Shown one piece after another: positions 3 to 13,400 of a stretch of DNA of 64,000 nt. The notes under the pieces are model-generated. The model saw nothing but the letters and a program-made list of their open reading frames with translations, ran no database searches and was not told the origin of the DNA. The DNA is from Phyllosticta citribraziliensis (Eukaryota): the NCBI RefSeq assembly GCF_038025025.1, contig NW_027117344.1, positions 248,001 to 312,000 on the forward strand. The letters are read 5' to 3'. A program made the position numbers and the translations under genes. Positions within the stretch are counted from its first letter, which is position 1. Every line of letters begins with the position of its first letter.

Positions 3-3000
3 GGACTGCCAAACTTCTCTGGACTTCCGACTGGCGCTCTCGAAAGCTTGGTGAGCGGTCTGCCTTCGCAGATCATCAGCGCAATCACCCAACCGCCTGC
101 AGTACTTTCCAGTGCATTGGACAACTTGCCCACCCAGGTATTGCCTTCAGTCCTTTCTGAGCTGTCCGAGTTGCAAAGCCAGCTGCCTACACTGCTCCCA
201 ACTCAACCCCTGATCAGCTTGATCAGCGATTTGCCTTCGGCGATCCAAAGCGCGATTACTCAGCCCCCCGCGGCTCTTTCTAGTGCCCTGGACAACCTGC
301 CAACTGGAATTCTTCCATCGGTACTATCAGAACTGTCACAAATCCAGAGCGCCCTGCCTACTCTCAGCAACGTGGCCCCCCTGGAGAGCCTCGTTAGCGG
401 CTTACCCTCTGCAATCCAGTCCGCTTTAACACAGCCTCCCGCAATACTCTCTAGCGCGTTGGACAACTTGCCGACTCAGGTCCTTCCATCTGTGCTGTCT
501 GAGCTGTCTGAGCTTCAGAGTGCCTTGCCTACTGCTCCCATCGGATCCATCATCTCGGCTTTGCCCAGCAACCTGGCCCCAGTGGAGTCTCTCGTTAGTG
601 GCTTGCCTTCAGCTATCCAAAGCGCCCTTACTCAGCCGGCTCCGATCCTCTCTAGTGCTTTGGAGAACTTGCCCACGCAGGCTTTGCCCTCCGTGCTGTC
701 AGAATTGTCCCAGATCCAAAGTCTTGTTCCCACGGCGCCAATTGGGTCCATTATCTCGGCCTTGCCCAGCAACCTGGCCCCGGTGGAGTCTCTCGTCAGC
801 GGCTTGCCCTCAGCAATTCAGAGTGCCCTTACTCAGCCTCCAGCGATACTCTCCAGCGCCCTGAGTAACTTGCCAACCCAGGTGCTGCCCTCCGTTTTGA
901 GCCAGATCAGCCAGATTGAGAGTGCTATTCCTTCGGTTATCTCTCCTATCGGCAGCATCATTTCTGGAATCCCGTCAGCGGTCCCTAGCATCTTGCCCAG
1001 TGGTGCTTTGTCCAGCGCATTGGGCCCGCTGGAGAGTGCACTCACCCAGCTTCCCGGAGGCGTCGAGTCGGCCTTGTCCCAGATCGCTACAAACCCAGCT
1101 GCGTTGTCCAGTGCAATTGGTGCACTTCCCAGTTCCGTGCTACCGGCCTTGAGTTCTGAGCTGTCGGCGATTGGCTCCGCCTTGACGCCCGTGGCCTCGA
1201 ACCTTGCTCCCATTGCCAGCAACTTGCCTGGAGCTGTTTCGTCCATCGTCAGTGGTCTTGAGCCCATTGCATCGATCTTGAATCCTAGCAACAACCCCTT
1301 GACGAGTCTCCTGAACCCCTCTAACATTGGAAGCATCATCAATCCCTCAGGTATCTCGTCAGCATTCAACCCCCTGACGTCGGCTTTGAACCCGTCTGGA
1401 TTGACGTCTGCACTGAACCCGCTTTCATCGGCGCTTAACCCATCTGGATTATCGTCTGCACTGAACCCGCTTTCATCAGCGCTCAACCCCTCTGGATTGA
1501 CGTCTGTACTGAACCCGCTTTCATCGGCGCTCAACCCGTCTGGTCTTTCGTCCGCGTTGAACCCGCTGTCGTCCGCTCTTAACCCATCTGGTCTTTCGTC
1601 TGCATTGAACCCGCTGTCGTCCGCTCTTAACCCCTCTGGATTGTCGTCAGCTCTCAACCCCCTGACCTCCGCGTTGAACCCGTCTGGTCTTTCATCCGCG
1701 TTGAACCCGCTGTCCTCGGCCTTGAACCCGTCAGGCCTGTCTTCCGCGTTGAACCCGCTGTCGTCTGCCCTGAACCCGTCAGGATTGTCGTCAGCTCTTA
1801 ACCCCCTGACCTCCGCCTTGAACCCGTCTGGTCTTTCATCCGCGTTGAACCCGCTGTCCTCGGCCTTGAACCCGTCAGGTCTTTCATCCGCGTTGAACCC
1901 GCTGTCCTCGGCCTTGAACCCGTCAGGCCTGTCTTCCGCGTTAAACCCGCTGTCGTCCGCCCTGAACCCGTCAGGTCTTTCCTCTGCATTGAACCCGCTG
2001 TCGTCGGCTCTCAACCCCCTGACTTCCGCCCTGAACCCGTCAGGCCTTTCCTCTGCGTTGAACCCGCTGTCGTCGGCTCTCAACCCCCTGACTTCCGCCC
2101 TGAACCCGTCAGGCCTTTCCTCTGCGTTGAACCCGCTGTCGTCGGCTCTCAACCCCCTGACTTCCGCCCTGAACCCGTCAGGCCTTTCCTCTGCGTTGAA
2201 TCCGCTGTCGTCAGCACTTAACCCGCTTTCGTCTGCCCTGAACCCGTCAGGCCTTTCCTCTGCGTTGAACCCGCTGTCGTCGGCTCTCAACCCCCTGACT
2301 TCCGCCCTGAACCCGTCAGGCCTTTCCTCTGCATTGAATCCGCTGTCGTCGGCACTTAACCCGCTTTCGTCTGCCCTGAACCCGTCGGGCCTGTCTTCTG
2401 CCTTGAACCCGCTGTCGTCGGCTCTCAACCCCTTGACTTCCGCCCTGAACCCGTCGGGCCTGTCTTCTGCCTTGAACCCGTTGTCCTCGGCGCTTAACCC
2501 CCTGACTTCGGCTCTCAATCCCTCGGCTCTGTCCTCGGCCATCAACCCCCTGACTTCAGCACTTAATCCCACACGCCTCTCCTCGGTATTGAACCCTGTC
2601 ACTTCGATCGTCAATCCCTCTGGTATTGTTTCCGGTGTCAACTCGATTGCCACGGGCATCAACTCGCTTGGAAACGGCGTATCATCAGCACTCGGAGGAG
2701 CAAACACCGCCGCAGCCTCTCTTGGAGCTGGCGTGAGTTCCGCGTTGGGCGGCGGCCTCGGGTCCATCCTCAACCCGACAGCGACTGCCGCCCCGTCCTC
2801 CACTAGGGCTGTGACGGCGCCTGGCGCCTCCTTTTCCATCATCGCGACGGGCACTGTGTACGGCAACGTGTACAACTACGTCTTCTACGCCAACACGCTT
2901 GTGAGCGTCAATGGCGGGTTCCTCGACCCGCGGACGGGCTCCGTCCAGGGTCTCCTACCCGGCGGCCAGCTCGTCGCCCTCCTGAGCGACGGTCTGCACA

Positions 3001-3113
3001 TCGCCAACAGGCTTGTGCCTTACCCGCAGGCGTGGTTGGAGATCCTGGCCCAGCTAGGCATCCGTCTCCCCATCGTCTCGCGTCTCCCCATCAACATCCC
3101 CGCCAAGGCTTAA
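3..3113 (+). CDS. 5'-truncated low-complexity Ser/Ala/Leu/Pro/Asn tandem-repeat protein (possibly secreted/cell-wall structural protein)
   Basis: Frame is open from base 3 to TAA at 3111-3113, so the start lies upstream of the window. It has ~5 copies of a ~60-66-aa repeat (LESLVSGLPSAIQSALTQPPAILSSALDNLPTQVLPSVLSELS), then ~50 SALNP-based 7/9-aa units, then a unique ~100-aa C-terminus. Variation between repeats is mostly at third codon positions, supporting coding status on +. Confidence 0.85.
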   Translation, partial: GLPNFSGLPTGALESLVSGLPSQIISAITQPPAVLSSALDNLPTQVLPSVLSELSELQSQLPTLLPTQPLISLISDLPSAIQSAITQPPAALSSALDNLPTGILPSVLSELSQIQSALPTLSNVAPLESLVSGLPSAIQSALTQPPAILSSALDNLPTQVLPSVLSELSELQSALPTAPIGSIISALPSNLAPVESLVSGLPSAIQSALTQPAPILSSALENLPTQALPSVLSELSQIQSLVPTAPIGSIISALPSNLAPVESLVSGLPSAIQSALTQPPAILSSALSNLPTQVLPSVLSQISQIESAIPSVISPIGSIISGIPSAVPSILPSGALSSALGPLESALTQLPGGVESALSQIATNPAALSSAIGALPSSVLPALSSELSAIGSALTPVASNLAPIASNLPGAVSSIVSGLEPIASILNPSNNPLTSLLNPSNIGSIINPSGISSAFNPLTSALNPSGLTSALNPLSSALNPSGLSSALNPLSSALNPSGLTSVLNPLSSALNPSGLSSALNPLSSALNPSGLSSALNPLSSALNPSGLSSALNPLTSALNPSGLSSALNPLSSALNPSGLSSALNPLSSALNPSGLSSALNPLTSALNPSGLSSALNPLSSALNPSGLSSALNPLSSALNPSGLSSALNPLSSALNPSGLSSALNPLSSALNPLTSALNPSGLSSALNPLSSALNPLTSALNPSGLSSALNPLSSALNPLTSALNPSGLSSALNPLSSALNPLSSALNPSGLSSALNPLSSALNPLTSALNPSGLSSALNPLSSALNPLSSALNPSGLSSALNPLSSALNPLTSALNPSGLSSALNPLSSALNPLTSALNPSALSSAINPLTSALNPTRLSSVLNPVTSIVNPSGIVSGVNSIATGINSLGNGVSSALGGANTAAASLGAGVSSALGGGLGSILNPTATAAPSSTRAVTAPGASFSIIATGTVYGNVYNYVFYANTLVSVNGGFLDPRTGSVQGLLPGGQLVALLSDGLHIANRLVPYPQAWLEILAQLGIRLPIVSRLPINIPAKA
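1356..2600 (+). repeat. Coding minisatellite: 21-bp (SALNPLS/T) and 27-bp (SALNPSGLS) units forming 48-bp and then 69-bp higher-order repeats
   Basis: Seen directly, e.g. recurring ttgaacccgctgtcgtc and aacccgtcaggcctttcctctgcg. Period switches from 16 aa to 23 aa at about 1990. Confidence 0.95.
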
Positions 3114-5040
3114 TGAATTCTTCGACGACCTTTGAGATCCTTCCCGTTGGTTTGCAAGCTTTAGCGAAGCGTTACGCAGCAGCATCATCATCATCATCAT
3201 CGTCATCATACGTACATTCTTGACCGTCTTTTTCCGCTCCCGCTATCGTCTACATTGTAGAAGAGAAAAGTCCAGTCATGCGCGCGCCAGTCAACACTTT
3301 CCTTTTTCGCTTCTCTTTTCTCCCGGGGATTGTTTTACTTTTCTATCCAGCCCGACATCATAACGACGAAAAAGAGGGTCTGTGTTTGCTAATGAGAAAG
3401 AACCTGTCTGATGATCATGTCAAAGCAAAAAAGCTGTTCGGCCAAACTTGGATCTTTGGACGCCTGTAATACCTCATGTTATCGATGTACGAGCGCCTGT
3501 GTACTTGTACTTTTAGAGAGAGGAGAGCTTGGGGTGAATTCAGCTTTTTTCCTTACTTTGCTGCCCTGATGCGTGACTTTTGCAATGCGTAAGAAAATTG
3601 ATGTTGCTGACTGTGTTAAGAGAGCAGTGGGCGAGTTCATCGGTTGAGGATGACGAATGCTCCCAGGAGAAGTAGAAAGAGGGAAGGCACTTGGAAACAA
3701 CAATTTGCAAATGAGGAGGGACGTAGAGACAGGTATCCCGGGATTGGCTCTTTTGTCCCGAGTTTCGCAAGTCATCGGAGCGATCGATTGGACCTCTCTA
3801 CTAGGCGAAGAAGACATTGTTCTTTGAGGCCTTCTGGAGGCTCGGAGTCTACATTTCCACGTGGAGATATCACAGCGAGGAGAAGTACAAACAGGAGCAG
3901 AAGGGCAAGGCAAGATCAAAGCGAATTGACAAGAGACAAATACAATAGGACACTGCGCCCCGTCCCGCGATAATCGGCGCTTGACGTATGCACAACATGT
4001 TAGTATTTGAATACTTCTGGCAGGAGGAAGAGGCTGGTCTTCTGTAGCGCCAGAAAAGCAAAAGAAAGAAAGCTGAGGATTCAGGCTTATGAGGGGGTTG
4101 GTTCCAGTTGTAGCACTCCCGTCGGCCGAAAGAGGCAATGTCTGATTCTGCAACTTCAAACGTAGTAGAGCTTCTGATCTCCCGTCGGTTCTCACTCCGG
4201 ATGGTCTGTCTTCCGCACAGTCCCCAGCGTTCAACTCTCTCAGGACTGACGACACTTTCACTACGTTCGAAGTTAAAAACCGATAGCCTCTTTGGGCCAT
4301 TGCGATACAACTTCAAACGTAGTACTTCTGATTTCCCATCAGCTAGCTCTCAATATGGGTGGTCTGTCTTCCGCACCACCAGCAGGCATTGAACCCGTTG
4401 TCCTCGGAGCTCAACCCGCTGAGGACACTTCCACTACGTTTGAAGTTGAAAACTGATAGCCTCTTTGGGCGATTGCGATACAACTTCAAACGTAGAGACG
4501 TCTGACACCTATCAATTCCAGCGGAATCCCCCCGACTGGTCTGAAGAAATCGATGAACATAGGAACAGAATGAAATGTATGCATGCTACTTCAGCGTCAC
4601 CGACAGCAGAAACTATCATTACAACATGACGGCGTCAGCCAGAACCCAGGCCTCCTGCAAGTACCGTACCCAGAAAAGGACGGCAGGATGCCGGGCCTAG
4701 CATATCAGGAAGTCAATCCAAAGTATGTAGAGGAGGCCATATATTGGAGCCTGACGTCTGAGGCGGACACACTCCGTTGGCCGAAAGAGGCAACCCCCAA
4801 TTTTGCAATCTCAAACGTAGTAGAGCTTTTGCTGCCGTCGCCAGTCTCCCTATCATTTCGGTGTTGCCCAGAACGATTGCCTCTTTGGGCGATTGAGAAG
4901 CAACTTCAAACGTAGTAAAGCTTTTGTTCCTAGCAGTATTGCCACTCACAACGACTGTACTGGGCAGCCCGCTGAGGATGCCTCTACTACGTTTGAAGTT
5001 ATACAAGGGATGACCCTTTTCGGCACATGAGGTCCCAATT

Positions 5041-5377
5041 TCAAACGTAGTAGAGCTTCTGTTCGACAGTCTTCCTAGCAGTGTTGAACCTTCCGTCTAC
5101 CGCTCTAGACAGCCTGCCATCAAGCAAAGCTCAACTACGTTTGAAGTTATGAACCGATCACCTCTTTGGGCGGATGAGGTCCAACTTCAAACGTAGTAGA
5201 ACTTCTGTTCAACAGTTTTCCTAGCAGTGTTGAACCTCACGTCAACCGCTCTAGACAGCCTGCCATCAAGCAAAGCTCAACTACGTTCGAAGTTACGAAC
5301 CGATTACCTCTTTGGGCGGATGAGGTCCAACTTCAAGCGCAGTAAAGCTTCTGCTCGACAGTCTTCCTAGCAGTGTT
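5041..5377. repeat. ~146-bp tandem duplication (~2.3 copies) inside the palindromic array
   Basis: tcaaacgtagtag...cttctgttc...cctagcagtgttgaacc...ccgctctagacagcctgccatcaagcaaagctcaactacg recurs at 5041, 5187 and (partly) 5333. Confidence 0.9.
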
Positions 5378-5475
5378 TTCCCTCTGCACTCGGCCGCTAT
5401 GTTCGAAGTTGCGAAACGATTACCTCTTTTGGCCACGCTGGCAGACCGATTAATGGTTCATTTGACCAGATTCTC

Positions 5476-5546
5476 TCAGCACTTGACAAGATTCCATCAG
5501 CACTTGACAAGATTCCATCAGCACTTGACAAGATTCCATCAGCACT
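5476..5546. repeat. 21-bp tandem repeat (tcagcacttgacaagattcca) x3.3
   Basis: Three exact copies 5476-5538 plus a partial copy; reads SALDKIP in one + frame. Confidence 0.95.
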
Positions 5547-5926
5547 CGGCCGCTACGTTTGAAGTTGCGAAACGATTGCCTCTTTCGGCCACGTTGGTAG
5601 AATGATTTAAGAGCACACTTGACAAGATACCATCGGCACTCGGCCGCTACTTTCAAAGTTGTAGAACGATTGCCCCTTTGGGACACGTGGGCAGATCGAT
5701 CAATGGTCCGATGAACAAGATACCATCGGCACTCGGCCGCTACGTTCAATGTTGCAGAACGATTACCTCTTTCGGCGAACAGTACTTTCCATCCCGTCGC
5801 TCTTCCCATAAATCCGCCGTCTCTGCGCAGCCAACCCCGGTATCGTGCGGAATAGATGGCGTACACCATCAAGCATCGATGACGAGACATCAGGAAAAAA
5901 AAAAAAAAAAAAAAAAAGGGACATAA

Positions 5927-6310
5927 TCTCAATCCACACTCCCACCCTCCTAATTATTCACTATCCACCCTCTTAAACTGAATCCACCCTCCCAAGAATT
6001 ATATAAGCAAGGGGGCCCGTGAGTAGTAAAATTTTCACTATTCTCTTATATTATAATCTTACTCCTGGTATTTTATATACACTTTTTAACCTTACTAACC
6101 TAGTTAGTACTACCTTATTATTCTTATTTCTACCTTATCACTATAGGCGCGCGCATGTAGGAGTATAGTAGTGGTAGTAGTGGTGGTGGTGATTATATAA
6201 GAACTAAAACAACAAATGACTTACCTAATTGAGATGGGATACGGGGAGGGTATATTCAGTTTAAGAGGGTGGATGGTGAGCGGGGTGGTATAATATTGTG
6301 TGGATTGAGA
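5927..6310. mobile_element. Non-autonomous TIR element (MITE-like), AT/TpA-rich and probably RIP-mutated
   Basis: Left end tctcaatccacac...tcactatccaccctcttaaactgaatccaccctccc (5927-5993) is the imperfect reverse complement of right end gggagggtatattcagtttaagagggtggatggtga...gtgtggattgaga (6244-6310). No internal ORF; strongly AT-rich against GC-rich flanks. Confidence 0.75.
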
Positions 6311-7149
6311 ATTTAACACAAAAAAAAAAAAAAAAAAAAACAGTGCTTGGATCTCCTCTGCGCAATAAGGGCGCGAGCGGAAATCAGACTGCCATAGCAT
6401 GTTGGCATCTGCTAGACGCCCAGCAGAGAAGGAGTACATGTCGTATCCGCGTGGTTCACTGCTGTCGTCCGCCAGCTTTGCTTCTGCGAAAGAAGAGAGA
6501 GGCTAGTAAGGCCTTTGTACCTGCCACCGCCCCTTTTCACATAGCAGCCCGTCGCTGCATGCTTTTCGTGCCTCAAGGGCGCCGCCATATAAATCTTCTC
6601 CTCTCAAATGCAAGAAAGAATCAAGCAAGACGATGCCAAACATCCCTTCTCTGGAGTTCAAGAAGAAGGATTACTGGTGGCTGTGCTGTTCTGTGAGCAT
6701 AGTGGCAGAGATAGAAGCTGCGTGCTCAGTCAGTTTTTATGGGATGTTGTTGAGAAGAAATGTTGACTGTGTTTATGAAGACATGCTGATTTGTTTTTGT
6801 GTGGTGTGGTGGAGACCTGAGTTGACAAGCTTCTCACGTGTGAATGCTCCCCATGTGCGTGTGCTGTGTGCGTACAGACGCTCCCTATATGCATGCTCTT
6901 ACTGCGTGCGTGCGAAATGCCAGCTCATAGTATACATACACGCTCTATGTGCGCGGATGCTCCCAGTGATCAACGCGTCGACGGGTTGCGATGTCGCTGC
7001 TCAGGAGCGTCAATACGGGAAGATGCAATATGAGGAAAGCGACCAAAGGCCTAGGAGAGCCAGAGCCGCCAGAAACCGGACAAGGGGTTTGTCCCCGTCC
7101 GACCTCGACTTTGATTACACTGCCCGAATCAGCCTCATCCACCCCCCCA

Positions 7150-8140
7150 CTACAACCCCTCCAAGAGCTTCTCAACCACCAGCGCCACGCCCTCTCCCGT
7201 CTCCCAGCACTCATCATGCTGCCCCTTTATGTCAACCGTCCGCACACCCGCCGCAGCCTCCTCCGCCGCCCGCCTCATCAGCTCCACCTGCTCCCACTCC
7301 ACCAGCCCATCCACGCGGCTCTGCGCCAGAACCACCCTCTGCAACCGCTTCAACACAGGCGCCACGCGCACCGGACTCGCCTCCGCCCACGCCGCTCTCA
7401 TGGCGTCGTCGACGCTGCCGCCATCGCCGCCGAATGCGCCGGCTAGGATCTCCGCGTACACGGGCACGTCGCCGTGATTCGCCGCGAAGCGCGGGACGTC
7501 GTAGATGCCCGAGATGCCCGCGACAGCACGCGGCAGCGCGCCCGCCTCCTCTAAATGTGGCAGCACCTGCAGCGCGAGCGTGGCGCCGCAGCTGTGGCCG
7601 AGCAGGACGAAGGGGCGCTGGGAGCCGACGGCGTAGAGGCGGCGCAGGGCGGCGAGCGCCTCGAGCACGTCGTCGCGGTGCGCGGGGTGCGCGACGGCGC
7701 GGCCTTCGAGCGCCGCGGCGGTCGTGTCGGGGGGGAGGCGGGTTGGGTGCGTCGGGTGTGTTGGGTAGGGCGAGAGGCGGTAGTGGAGGGAGGCGATGCC
7801 GGCGATGTGCGGGAGAGAGGGCGAGTTGTTGCGCAAGAGGTACGCGATGGTGGGTTGGATGGAGGAGGCGGCGATGAGCGGGTCGCGCCAGGCGCCGCCG
7901 TGGATGTAGCTGAGGACAGCGTTAGCAAATTGCGTTGTACTGTGTTGTTGTGGTGTAGTTGATTGTGGCGCGGGGCGGCGGGCATGTTCGGTGGTGGGGA
8001 GCTCGTCTCGACTCGACTCACACTACCCAGACTGCATCTTCAGGACTCTCCTCGAGGGGCCGCGGGAGCCAGATGTCGAGCGTGTTGAGGCGCGAATGCG
8101 TCGCGTAAGGAATGTCGTTGATGTAGAGAGGATAGGCCAT
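7150..8140 (-). CDS. BNA7: Kynurenine formamidase (alpha/beta hydrolase), 2 exons (intron 7910-8021)
   Basis: Spliced reading gives MAYPLYINDIPY...LNTLDIWLP...WVVYIHGGAWRDP, then ASLHYRLSPYP, the GHSCGA nucleophile motif, GIYD and a C-terminal GQHDECW. Donor GTGAGT, branch GCTAAC and acceptor CAG are present. Confidence 0.85.
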
Positions 8141-9924: not shown

Positions 9925-10468
9925 GTTGTCGTGGAGAGCAGCGGTGGTGTGAACAGCCTAAGAGATGCTCGAAGCTCTCGGACTGGACTGACTGGGTAGC
10001 TCGGCGTTGGAGCCAGAGGCCGTCCGTCTCTCGGCGCCGCCCATGGTTTTCTCCGCTGCACGGACCAGGGAAGCAGCCGCAGAAGGACCACAGGCATCCT
10101 CGCAGTTTCTCCAACACCAACCAGGCCACCCACTATGATTAAGTCAATTCGAACATCGATCCAAAATTCCATTTTCAATCCTACTACAACCGAGTCTCTA
10201 CTGCCTCCAATCACATTCAATCCACAAGAGCAAGGACAAAGACAACAAAACGTCATTGAAAGGCCGAACTATCATCAATCTCAAGTCAAGATGCAGGGTA
10301 TCATGGCATCATCATCATCGTCGTCGTCATCAATCATAACCCCATAGAGACGTATTGATCCAAAAGACCCCGAATGCTTTTCTTTTCCCCTCCTTTCCTT
10401 TCCCTTCCCAATCCAGCCACCCAGCCGGTCCACCACCATGACCACAAGCCCAACTCCAACCACCACAC

Positions 10469-13400
10469 TCACAGCCCAATCTTCTTCAGCCAGCTACTCC
10501 CCTTGCGCTCGCCCTTGGGCCGCTCCGCCGGCTGCCCGTCCCACGTCCGCACGCCCGGCTCATCCCACAGCACGCCACTATCTCTCTTTCTGCGGCCCTC
10601 TCCGCTCCCGCCGCCGTCACTGCTCCTCAGCCCCTCCGCGTCGTCTCTCCTGCGTCTGCGCCGGCGCCTGCCGCCGTCGTCATGCCCCGCGGCAGCAGCC
10701 GGGTCGTAGAAGCGGTCGCGGTCGTCGCTGAACTTGGAGTCGCGCTTGCGCGCCCGCCGCATCTCGTGGCGGTCCATGTCGTCGACGTACGCGGCGCCGC
10801 CGCCGTTATTGGGATCCAGCGCGGCGGCCGCGTCGAGAGCGGCCGGCGGCGCGTCGATGATGGTTTCGGCCAGGGGCACGGGCGGCGGCGGTTCGGCGTT
10901 GACTTGGTCGACCCACGAGCGCGTCTTGTCGCTGCCGCTGGCGGCTGAGCCGGAGCCGCCGCCGCCGTGGTGCTGGTGGTGGCGATGCGACGACGAGCGG
11001 TGCATTTGGCCGTTGCGCGGGTCGAAGTAGTCGCGGACGGGCTCGGTGTGCGAGCGGCGGAGCGGCGAGGGCTTGAATTCGGCGTCGGCGTCTGCGGCGC
11101 GACGAGTCCGCCGTTCGTCATGGCGGCGGCGACGGTCGTCTCTGTCGCGATCGTCGTCGACGCGTGTTGAATGGCGGCGCGAATCGGTGCGTGGGCGATG
11201 CGAATGGTGGGCCGAGGGCGAATCGACAGATACACCACCGCCATGCTTGTCACGACGACGGGTATGCCGTTCACGCCGCTCGCGCTCGAGCTCTGCCTGT
11301 TCTGCGGCCGCGGCCTCTTCTGCTTCGACGCGCTTGCGTTCTTCTTCCTCGACCCGTTTGCGCTCCTCCTTTTCCTTTCGGGCAGCACGACGAGCACGCT
11401 TCTCCTCTTGTCTCCTTGCTTCCACCTCTTGCTCTTCACGAAGTCGCTGCTCTTGCTCGCGTGCTTCGCGTTCCCGCTCTTTGACACGGCGCTCTTCCAG
11501 AACCTCCTTTTCCTTTCGCCGCTCGCGCCGGGCCCTCCTCTCCGCCCGGCGTGCCTCTGCGTCTTCAGCATCAGTCTCGCCGCTACCTCCTCGGCCAGGG
11601 GTAGGTTCCGGGGCGAATTCATCTTCAGACGCGGGCCGGGAGCGCTGGAGTCGTCGTTGCTCTCTCCTAAGCCGCTTGGCGTAGTCTTCATCGGCGGCCT
11701 TGGACTTCTTCCTCCTGCGCCCTTCGTCATCGTCCCTCACACCATTCCTCCGCTCATCAATCTCGGGGACGACGCTCTCCTTCTTCTTGGCCGAGCCGAG
11801 GCCAAATAGGCCCATCAGTCCGCCGCCTCCGCCTCCGTTCTCAGCCTTCCGCGGCGTCTCCACTCGCGACTCCTTCCTCTCCTTCCTCCGCCGTGGTTGA
11901 CTTTCTACGAAGACGCCGTCGTCGTCGCCTATGATAGCTTCAGGCCCTGCGTCCGCCGCATCGATGACGACGGGCGGCTCCTCGCCGTCCACCGCCACAT
12001 CCACATGCCGTGACTTGCGTCTCCCACTCTTGCGCGGCGACACCTCGTCCGCCTCGTCATCCACACGGCCTGGTCGGCGTCTACTCCCCGTCTCCTTGGT
12101 CGAATGGCGCCGCGACAAGCGCGTGCGCTCCCGCTCCGCCGACCGCTGCTCGCCCTCACTCAGGCCCATCATGCGCGCAGCCTTGGAGCCAACCCGATTA
12201 GCGCCAGGCATGTCGTCGGCGCGATGATCCTCGTCGTCAAACACGTCCTCGTGCGGGCGACGCGCCTTGTTGGCACTGCGCGGCGTCGGGTCCTTGAGCG
12301 ACTTCGACCGCAGCGGCGTAGCGCCTGCGAAGAAGGAAAAGCTGCTGGCGCGCGCCGCCGGCTTGGGGCGACCACCGCTGCTATTCTTGCGCTCGCCGGA
12401 CCCGGAACTCTTCGAGTCGTCGCGATCAATTGTCTTCTCTTTCTTGGACGAGTGCCGCTCGCGCACCATGGCACCGCGGACGGGCGTGCGCGCGGGCGTC
12501 GCGCCGCTCTCGCCGTTGCTCTTCTTGCGCACCGTCTCGCGCACGACTGCGGGCCCGGCGGTTGCGCCCCAGAAGCCCCACGAGGTGCCGGCGTTCTTGT
12601 CGCGGATGACCTTTGGGCGTTCCTTTTTAGATGCCTCGGACTTGGGGGCCGACGACGTTTTTGTCTCAGCAGCAGCAGCAGATGTATCCACTTCTGGCGC
12701 GGCAGGTGGAGGTGCAGCAGAGACGGTTTCGTCGTTGTTGGGGGCGGGCGGCAGATCCGAGGGAGGCAGGTCAGAGACGATGGCTGGGTCCGCGGCGGCG
12801 GTTTGTTCCGCAGAAAGAGGTGGTTGGTCTGGCGCGGGAGTGGGTGGTGCCGCATCCATTTTACTACCACCACCGCTGCCGCCCTTGCTCTTCTTCTTCT
12901 TGTCCTTTTCCTTTTCCTTCTTACTTTTTGCAGGCGACGCTTTTTCCTTGCCAGCTGGCTCGGGCTCGACAATCAGGTCTTGCGGCGCAGGCGGCACGTC
13001 GACGACGTAGTCGTCTTCGTCTGCAGGAAAACCGCCGGGGATCGGCGACACTATGTCGTCGGCTGCGTGTTCGGGTTCTGGATCGGGCTCGACGGCGACG
13101 GGAGGTGGCTCCGCAGGTAAAGTCTTGCCCTTTGCAGCTTTCTTGGCGGCCTTTTTGTCCGCGCGCTTGTCCTTGGAGCTCTTTTTGACGTCGTCGTGGG
13201 CCGGCGGCGAGGTCGCGTCGCCCCAGATGTCGTCGTGGTCAGGTTCGGCGGTGGTCTCGTGGGCAGAGATTATTTGCGGTGGCAGGGGTGACTCGTGATG
13301 TGGTGGTGGTGGTGGTGGCGCATCATCGAGCAGCTCGTCACCGGCGGCGAACGCAGCAGGTGGCACGGGCGGCACCTCGAACGCTTTGAGTCGATCCGCT

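Follow-up and report, generated by a model that had tools for sequence, protein, structure and literature searches.

A composite array of palindromic modules and coding-repeat relics between two convergent genes of Phyllosticta citribraziliensis

The window analysed here, i.e., a stretch of 64,000 nucleotides of contig NW_027117344.1 of Phyllosticta citribraziliensis numbered from its first letter, contains at positions 4124-5777 an array of 1.65 kb of non-coding DNA, in which a motif of about 40 nt is present in about 12 copies. The array is located in a 4-kb gap separating the 3' ends of two convergent genes (3-3113 on the plus strand and 7153-8022 on the minus strand). We hold with moderate confidence that it is a locus-specific non-coding composite minisatellite, in which a palindrome and relics of the repeat of a neighbouring gene would have been amplified by unequal recombination, and that it has no dedicated function. 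The array belongs to a known kind of DNA, in which it constitutes a new sequence family; its structure is real and unusual in detail.

Organisation of the array

The 15-nt arm CAACTTCAAACGTAG, taken together with its complement, has 17 matches at three mismatches or fewer, all of them within 4151-5754, against 1.07 expected, and none of 100 shuffles reached this number; the 17 copies carry only 17 mismatches in 255 positions. The arm array noticed by the sequence-only reading of this DNA, which had described it as some 12 palindromic modules, is thus real. The conserved unit is a half-module of about 40 nt consisting of box A (CTACGTTTGAAGTTG), a linker of about 12 nt (RAAC.GAT) and box B (GCCTCTTTSGGC). 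Alignment gives 12 copies of it, 10 forward and 2 inverted, with box B present in all 12. However, only five of them (at 4261, 4434, 4987, 5135 and 5281) are complete palindromes of 62-64 nt, in which box B is followed by an inverted box A; in a sixth module (4857-4915) the left arm is decayed, and the rest are half-modules, either forward and devoid of the right arm (5397, 5553, 5647, and 5740) or inverted (4124 and 4779). It is the 40-nt half-module, not the hairpin, that is the conserved entity. The half-module profile (nhmmer) was trained on the 12 copies and recovers them by construction; it also matches five right arms at E-values of 6e-4 to 6e-3. All 17 arms and 12 half-modules lie within 4123-5778, and in the other 62 kb of the window nothing is significant (the profile finds nothing better than E 0.7), i.e., the motif is local only.

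Along the array, inverted half-modules (R), palindromic modules (M) and forward half-modules (C) are arranged in the order R, M, M, R, M, M, M, M, C, C, C, C. They form three sub-arrays: one of two units at a period of 173 nt, one of about four units at 135/148/146 nt, and one of four units at 156/94/93 nt. Tandem Repeats Finder (TRF) reports 146 nt in 2.7 copies (88%), 94 nt in 2.7 copies (80%) and 21 nt in 4.0 copies (95%); head-to-tail units of 10-200 nt, by which minisatellites are defined, were thus found both by TRF and as the direct-repeat families D1-D9. The constituents of the array, those without strand being marked as unstranded, are as follows.

4124..4165, minus strand: R1, inverted half-module (box B', linker, box A'); nhmmer E 2e-12 as a training row; 37/42 identical to C2 when reverse-complemented
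4261..4322, unstranded: M1, full 62-nt palindromic module; arm search, folding and alignment
4434..4495, unstranded: M2, full module with a perfect 15-bp stem; RNA z -5.1/-5.7, DNA z -6.56
4496..4775, unstranded: unique 280-nt interruption between sub-arrays, covered by no repeat family; a contig of the public run X1 spans 4548-4809 with 0 differences
4779..4820, minus strand: R2, second inverted half-module; nhmmer E 2.3e-11 as a training row; D10 pairs 4119-4176 with 4774-4831 at 83%
4857..4915, unstranded: M3, left arm decayed, box B and right arm intact; nhmmer E 1.3e-7 for 4857-4892 and E 0.0023 for the right arm at 4900-4917; reference copy of D1
4987..5050, unstranded: M4, full 64-nt module whose stem extends to 18/19 (4982-5055); I13, DNA z -6.96
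5135..5196, unstranded: M5, full module whose arms extend to 22 nt (5127-5204); I5 and folding
5281..5342, unstranded: M6, full module with 4 non-Watson-Crick positions; arm search, alignment and RNAalifold
5397..5434, plus strand: C1, forward half-module, no right arm; nhmmer E 9.4e-14 as a training row
5462..5546, plus strand: 21-bp minisatellite in 4 copies, translating as SALDKIP; TRF period 21, 4.0 copies, 95%
5553..5590, plus strand: C2, forward half-module nearest to the consensus; nhmmer E 2.9e-15 as a training row; DNA fold z -0.42
5647..5684, plus strand: C3, forward half-module; half-module profile
5740..5777, plus strand: C4, last forward half-module; half-module profile, DNA fold z -0.18

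Several details given by the sequence-only reading were confirmed: the perfect 15-bp stem of M2 (4434-4448/4481-4495), the 18/19 stem of M4 (4982-5000/5037-5055, I13), the outward extension of the arms, which reaches up to 22 nt at 91-95% (I3-I5), and the loop core CCTCTTT(G/C)GGC, which is present with small variants in all 12 aligned copies. The loops of the full modules are asymmetric and homologous in all of them, and the left and right flanks of the full modules are homologous as well (D7, D9, and D1). The first copy (4124-4165) is, as had been stated, inverted relative to the last one (I15). However, the foldback outer boundary deduced from this arrangement is not special, considering that R1 is identical to the interior C2 at 37 of 42 positions and to the terminal C4 at only 33 of 42, and that a second inverted copy (4779-4820) lies inside the block. 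As to the segment 4506-4751, it is flanked by a 9-nt direct repeat, GACGTCTGA, which was considered as a target duplication and rejected: about two such repeats are expected by chance (our own estimate), and the segment has no inverted ends.

Spacers, coding capacity and mode of amplification

The repeat-spacer look, to which the sequence-only reading could assign no known fungal element, did not survive closer analysis, since the spacers appear to be relics of the coding repeat of the neighbouring gene, which that reading had missed; this removes the resemblance to CRISPR (clustered regularly interspaced short palindromic repeats). Judging by their sequences, two of the spacers were copied from the 48-nt coding repeat of the upstream gene next to them and have since decayed and lost the frame.

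4182..4247, plus strand: spacer, relic of the 48-nt coding repeat of the neighbouring gene (translates as ...LPSVLTPDGLSSAQSP...) with a 9-nt deletion; nhmmer with the C-type profile, E 0.046; tblastn, E 0.003
4346..4418, plus strand: spacer, relic of the coding repeat, frameshifted (ALNMGGLSSA, 13-nt insert, ALNPLSSELNP); nhmmer E 8e-6

On the same strand, blastn aligns 4389-4422 with the gene repeat at 2472-2505 (31/34 identical, E 9.3e-6), and the spacer translations ALNMGGLSSA, ALNPLSSELNPL and LTPDGLSSAQ can be compared with ALNPSGLSSALNPLSS of the upstream gene. Same-strand similarity combined with disabling changes, which characterises pseudogene fragments, was found for these two spacers and is weak for the others. 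The spacers of the other sub-arrays encode TALDSLPSS and SALDKIPSAL (the latter in the 21-bp minisatellite), resembling the SALDNLPTQ repeats of the N-terminal part of the gene product; for sub-arrays B and C, the origin from the gene repeat is suggestive only.

The array itself is non-coding. There are stops in every frame of it, and only three of the seven unit lengths (173, 135, 148, 146, 156, 94, and 93 nt) are multiples of three. The longest sense frame, 5612-5923, which passes through two half-modules, has no relatives in a near-length word search. Among 1.84 billion representatives it has one match, the thrombospondin-type repeat protein P0002, which we rejected as spurious: 24 low-complexity residues are matched seven times. 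A search of the array region with P0001, the homologue of the upstream gene product (see below), gave nothing below E 0.7.

These results bear on the idea that the array could be a real coding paralogue of the upstream gene, with the palindromic modules acting as introner-like elements or symmetrical introns. The spacers do encode peptides similar to the repeats of the neighbour on the same strand, the 62-nt module and the periods of 146 and 173 nt are all 2 mod 3, and palindromic proliferating introns exist in fungi (PMC8469720 and PMC3609843). However, a scan of 3100-6000 for the donor GTRNGY, the branch point CTRAY and the acceptor YAG revealed four candidate introns, none of which recurs in the modules, so that the idea fails its defining test. 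In addition to the stops and the lack of protein relatives, the frame is broken by the periods of 135, 148, and 94 nt, one of the relics contains a 13-nt insert, and, in our own reading, precise excision of 62 nt would leave TAG at each junction. Introner-like elements and symmetrical stwintrons (PMC3609843 and PMC8469720) are similar to the modules in being short, palindromic or structured, free of flanking duplications and situated within coding-type sequence. The array differs from them by the absence of donor, branch and acceptor signals, by the broken surrounding frame and by its restriction to one locus, instead of scores of genes. Such a paralogue with introns seems to us extremely improbable.

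As for the origin of the composite minisatellite, we suppose that fragments of the 48-nt coding repeat of the neighbour were duplicated into the downstream spacer on the same strand, and that a 40-nt element within or beside these relics was duplicated in the inverted orientation (compare R1 and R2, inverted halves that are complete and contain box B). This would have created a palindrome of about 100 nt, whose centre would then have been lost, leaving box B only once, the asymmetric loop common to all full modules, and the hairpin module of 62 nt. The asymmetric loops, homologous in all full modules, indicate that the palindrome was formed once and copied afterwards. The module together with its flanking relic could have been multiplied and reshuffled through unequal crossing-over and replication slippage, along with small deletions or inversions, the outcome being the sub-arrays of 173, ~146 and ~94 nt, the solo halves in both orientations (by later deletions), and the present-day length polymorphism. 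The hairpins would be a by-product making the DNA cruciform- and slippage-prone. The analysis demonstrates the anatomy, the derivation of two spacers from the gene repeat, the lack of coding capacity and of covariation, and the length polymorphism; we infer the order of events, the central deletion and the absence of function, as well as the cause of the arm conservation discussed below. The differences between copies are transitions in 31 of 42 cases, as in ordinary decay.

The length of the array is polymorphic, i.e., its instability is ongoing: a near-identical contig of the public metagenome run X1 lacks one 21-nt unit, at 5476 (a single contig of low depth). Two further runs, X2 and X3, cover only 5179-5327 and 5155-5334, respectively, of the 4.1 kb compared, and the parts not covered by them were not used as evidence. 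In X2, a small run of unspecified type, a 165-nt contig with a word depth of 12.8 is identical to exactly one 146-nt period (5179-5327) and has 9-10 unlike letters at each end, which may reflect a different context, an amplicon or a graph artefact.

Complex minisatellites and arrays derived from transposable elements (TEs) or genes (PMC5932611) likewise consist of units repeated head to tail (here 94-173 nt long) and assembled from pieces of other sequences; they also share with the array the division into sub-arrays that differ in period and a copy number that varies between samples. In contrast to them, each unit here includes a 62-nt palindrome or its half, in which the arms are far more conserved than the remainder of the unit; its other half appears to come from the coding repeat of the neighbouring gene, and only one short locus, with about 12 units, is involved.

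Several results weigh against the composite-minisatellite interpretation. With the N-type protein profile, the spacers of sub-arrays B and C rank first of 2107 non-self six-frame segments, yet score no more than 7.1 and 6.4 bits, and at the DNA level the N-type profile has no match in the array below E 8.9. No relic of the C-terminal domain of the upstream gene product was found in 3101-7200, so that the array holds fragments of the coding repeat and not a whole decayed paralogue. The contig of run X3 consists of 180 nt of the 146-nt unit (2 differences) and 52 letters unlike the window (a 20-mer of this flank is absent from the window at up to 3 mismatches); therefore, the unit may also sit in another context, and the junction could represent either another locus or a structural variant of the array. 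Finally, the arms are conserved unevenly with respect to their surroundings: the mean identity between modules is 93% and 92% for the two arms, 71% for the loops and 59% for the spacers, while shuffled sequences give 46-49%. When one module from each sub-array was compared, the arms had 1-2 mismatches per 30 positions, against 10-15 non-matching columns in the loop and 36-63 in the spacer (Fisher p 9e-7 to 5e-5). Neutral co-amplification alone predicts even decay, and concerted evolution must thus be invoked; homogenisation of the 17 copies by gene conversion or concerted evolution is our assumption, and selection on the 15-mer would be a simpler account of the same conservation.

Conserved arms, hairpins and mobility

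The 15-mer is equally conserved in the copies unable to form a hairpin, which means that any selection would act on the sequence, as on a binding or recognition site, rather than on the structure. Boxes A and B might thus be sites of a sequence-specific DNA-binding protein, and the array a putative regulatory, boundary or titration platform. The 15-mer kept in 17 copies and the 12-mer kept in 12 copies are in line with such a role, and so is the occurrence of the boxes in either orientation, with or without a hairpin, and their significantly better conservation compared to the surroundings. On the other hand, the site is located between convergent 3' ends, where no promoter that it might regulate is evident, the rest of the 64 kb is free of the motif, and no known factor can be assigned to it, the resemblance of the boxes to HSE, bZIP and Zn-cluster sites having been considered and set aside; we consider a binding platform quite improbable. 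There is also a small chance that box A and box B, with the inverted arm as an option, make up a small palindromic element of 40 nt that has not been described before in ascomycetes, has its 15-mer under selection as a candidate binding or processing site, and colonises, or co-amplifies with, the coding tandem repeats of genes of secreted repeat proteins. If this is true, its place would be between a miniature inverted-repeat transposable element (MITE), a Helitron-type carrier of gene fragments and an introner, and such genes could owe variation in repeat number, or new introns, to it.

The full modules fold well beyond shuffles, with z-scores of -2.7 to -6.2 as RNA (both strands) and -4.6 to -7.0 as DNA, so the suggestion of a cruciform-prone locus has computational support for these five modules. 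The half-modules fold no better than shuffles (DNA z -0.42, +1.13, and -0.18). In the RNAalifold consensus of the five full modules there is no covariation: not one of the 18 pairs has a compensatory change, 5 cells are broken, and the covariation term is +0.68; all variation in the stems is single-sided. A search in Rfam gave no matches at gathering scores and four sub-threshold ones with E-values of 0.21-8.9, among which the best near-miss is mir-1006 (E 0.21, 24.7 bits vs. a gathering score of 64), MIR169 having E 4.1.

The sequence-only reading had also admitted a precursor of small RNAs. In this case the array would be transcribed, alone or by read-through from the upstream gene, and its 5-6 hairpins would either be diced to small RNAs, as a cluster of microRNA-like RNAs (milRNAs) or small interfering RNAs, or serve as structured RNA elements. 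The folding of the full modules, far better than that of shuffles on both strands, speaks for this, as does the fact that 7 of 9 non-Watson-Crick positions become G.U on the minus strand (our own reading; the excess is not significant and is partly shared by descent), and the best Rfam near-misses are models of microRNA (miRNA) precursors, although all of them are far below gathering scores. The absence of compensatory changes in the 18 pairs and of any Rfam family at gathering scores argues against it. Moreover, 6 of 12 conserved copies have no hairpin, which indicates that it is the sequence that is conserved and not the structure, and the loops, at 32-34 nt, exceed what is usual in substrates of Dicer. 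Clusters of fungal milRNA or of plant and animal miRNA precursors have in common with the array several stable hairpins of 60-80 nt in a row; the array differs from them in having no covariation, no family match and half-modules without hairpins. All this makes a source of small or structured RNAs improbable in our estimation.

As to mobility, the module might be a small mobile palindromic element, past or present, of the MITE/foldback type or a non-autonomous unit similar to Helitron2/HINE. It could have been inserted repeatedly into an old array of gene repeats, or the whole of 4124-5777 could be one non-autonomous transposon with subterminal transposase-binding motifs in both orientations. 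Five modules have terminal inverted repeats in the form of arms of 15-22 nt, 91-100% identical, which are more conserved than the sequence between them, a trait known from MITE families, and conserved modules amid diverged spacers would fit young insertions in old repeats. Copies occur in both orientations, the outermost two being mutually inverted (I15), and the X3 contig joins the unit to 52 unlike letters. A different foldback element 140 nt downstream (see below) indicates that the region accepts insertions. Tandem insertions of Helitron-derived elements and, in fungi, hairpins at both termini of Helitron2 elements have been described (PMC5148889), as have TE dimers that act as seeds of arrays (PMC5932611); we count both in favour of mobility.

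The terminal inverted repeats are, however, absent in 6 of 12 copies, and no matching target-site duplications were found at the modules: examined by eye, only M4 has TA on both sides, while the flanks of the other full modules are CA/TA, CA/AG, AA/TA and AA/TA (left flanks other than that of M4 being CA, AA or CG). The homologous flanks of all full modules fit one insertion copied together with its flanks. The order of copies is not the mirror-image layout of a foldback element, and no other copy is present in the remaining 62 kb. Neither a transposase nor a Rep/Hel domain was found in the 59 ORFs (open reading frames) scanned out of 106 stop-to-stop ORFs of at least 150 codons listed in the window. 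With regard to the foldback/MITE origin proposed by the sequence-only reading, then, the inverted arms are there, while the target-site duplication, further copies in the window and, in the scanned ORFs, the autonomous transposase sought are not.

We also scanned public collections of metagenome, prokaryote-genome and viral contigs with the pattern CTACGTTYGAAGTTN{10,18}CCTCTTT. The matches were single ones in four metagenome loci, two loci of prokaryote metagenome-assembled genomes and one viral locus; each of the four metagenome loci has one arm and no 12-nt box B, and all seven matches are treated as chance. The literature on MITEs, foldback and tandem arrays, introner-like elements, fungal minisatellites and ascomycete milRNA that we consulted contains no description of this element, and four arm strings were not found in literature text.

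The array resembles MITEs and foldback elements in that it is short and non-coding, with inverted arms flanking a variable core and a capacity to form hairpins. It differs from them by the lack of target-site duplications, and of dispersed copies or a partner transposase in the window, by the absence of one arm in half of the copies and by the homologous flanks shared by the full ones. Elements of the Helitron2/HINE type (PMC5148889) are similar in the hairpins near the unit ends, the tandem arrangement and the sense-oriented gene fragments, and the mini-palindrome GCC-N6-GGC of box B, which at R1 follows a TC, is reminiscent of the 5' hairpin of FoHeli, TCAGCCGAAGGCTG. In place of a short terminal hairpin, however, the array has a stem of 15 bp and a loop of 32 nt, its unit termini are not definable, and the scanned ORFs include no Rep/Hel gene. 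Neither the Helitron termini described in PMC5148889 (5'-TC...CTRR-3', with a short hairpin 10-12 nt from the end, or asymmetric terminal inverted repeats with hairpins at both ends) nor the Helitron2 termini known from Fusarium, of the FoHeli type (TCAG... and ...ATTTT, inserted after TNAT), were found in the array: the nearest CTAG (5079) follows the end of the hairpin (5055) at a distance of 24 nt, and there is no TNAT|T context. On balance, we regard a mobile origin of the module as unlikely, though deserving consideration.

Surroundings and significance of the array

The window is a gene-dense stretch of a fungal chromosome, in which Pfam families such as Tim54, MutS, a ClpB/Hsp104-type ATPase, Sas10, Zn-cluster transcription factors, stomatin, and further housekeeping families were identified. 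The array-bearing intergenic region has a G+C content of 0.41-0.50, vs. 0.70-0.74 in the coding sequence at 7250-8000 and 10500-11250. The two genes adjacent to the array are the following.

3..3113, plus strand: 3' part of a gene for a Ser/Leu/Pro-rich tandem-repeat protein; ORF of 1036 aa, open at the 5' end; TRF periods 48/69/144
7153..8022, minus strand: alpha/beta-hydrolase gene (Pfam)

The product of the upstream gene has at least 1036 aa, nearly all of them in repeats of the LNPLSSALNPSGLSSA type (48/69 nt) and of the LPSAIQSALTQPPAILSSALDNLPTQVLPSVLSEL type, followed by a short non-repetitive C-terminal domain. Its only homologue among 5.8 billion clusters is P0001 (615 aa, 36% identity, LPTD-type repeats). 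The N-terminus of P0001, judged by eye from the sequence, is similar to a signal peptide. We regard the upstream gene as one for a secreted repeat protein. The Baculo_PEP_C Pfam match of this protein looks compositional.

Directly 3' of the stop codon of this gene, positions 3117-3140 (TTCGACGACCTTTGAGAT) translate to SSTTFEI; compared by eye with the left arm of the module and its flank (SSTTFEV), about 12 of 17 positions are alike, and the similarity is not significant in the profile search. A trinucleotide run (CAT)n/(CGT)n is common to the upstream spacer of the array (3182-3208) and to 10306-10332 (25 of 27 positions identical). On the minus strand, a stop-free frame of 277 codons (3482-4312), which overlaps the first modules and is antisense to a purine-rich stretch (GC skew +0.15 to +0.2), has no Pfam match and is probably a compositional artefact.

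Downstream of the array, at a distance of 140 nt, there is a separate AT-rich foldback/MITE-like element of about 400 bp (5919-6319). Its arms pair 5958-5993 with 6244-6279 (33/36) and 5927-5939 with 6298-6310 (13/13), and it is bordered by a poly(A) run on either side (A22, 5896-5918; A21, 6320-6340), perhaps a duplicated A-rich target. The former run was also considered as the tail of a retrocopy of the array; this was rejected, as it belongs to the foldback element and is matched by A21 on the other side. In run X1 this element is highly polymorphic: 159 nt between 6046 and 6206 are skipped, 12 nt are inserted, and there are about 20 single-nucleotide polymorphisms.

As read here, the array matters little: it would be a locus-specific complex repeat, of use chiefly as a hypervariable marker and as a caution in genome assembly and gene calling. 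It may nevertheless serve as a concrete case of a coding tandem repeat that spilled into the neighbouring spacer and was re-amplified there along with a palindrome. The one point that merits attention is that the 15-nt arm is strongly conserved in its 17 copies, independently of the structure. If this conservation is due to selection and not to concerted evolution, the array would be either a functional binding or processing platform or the footprint of a mobile element new to science.

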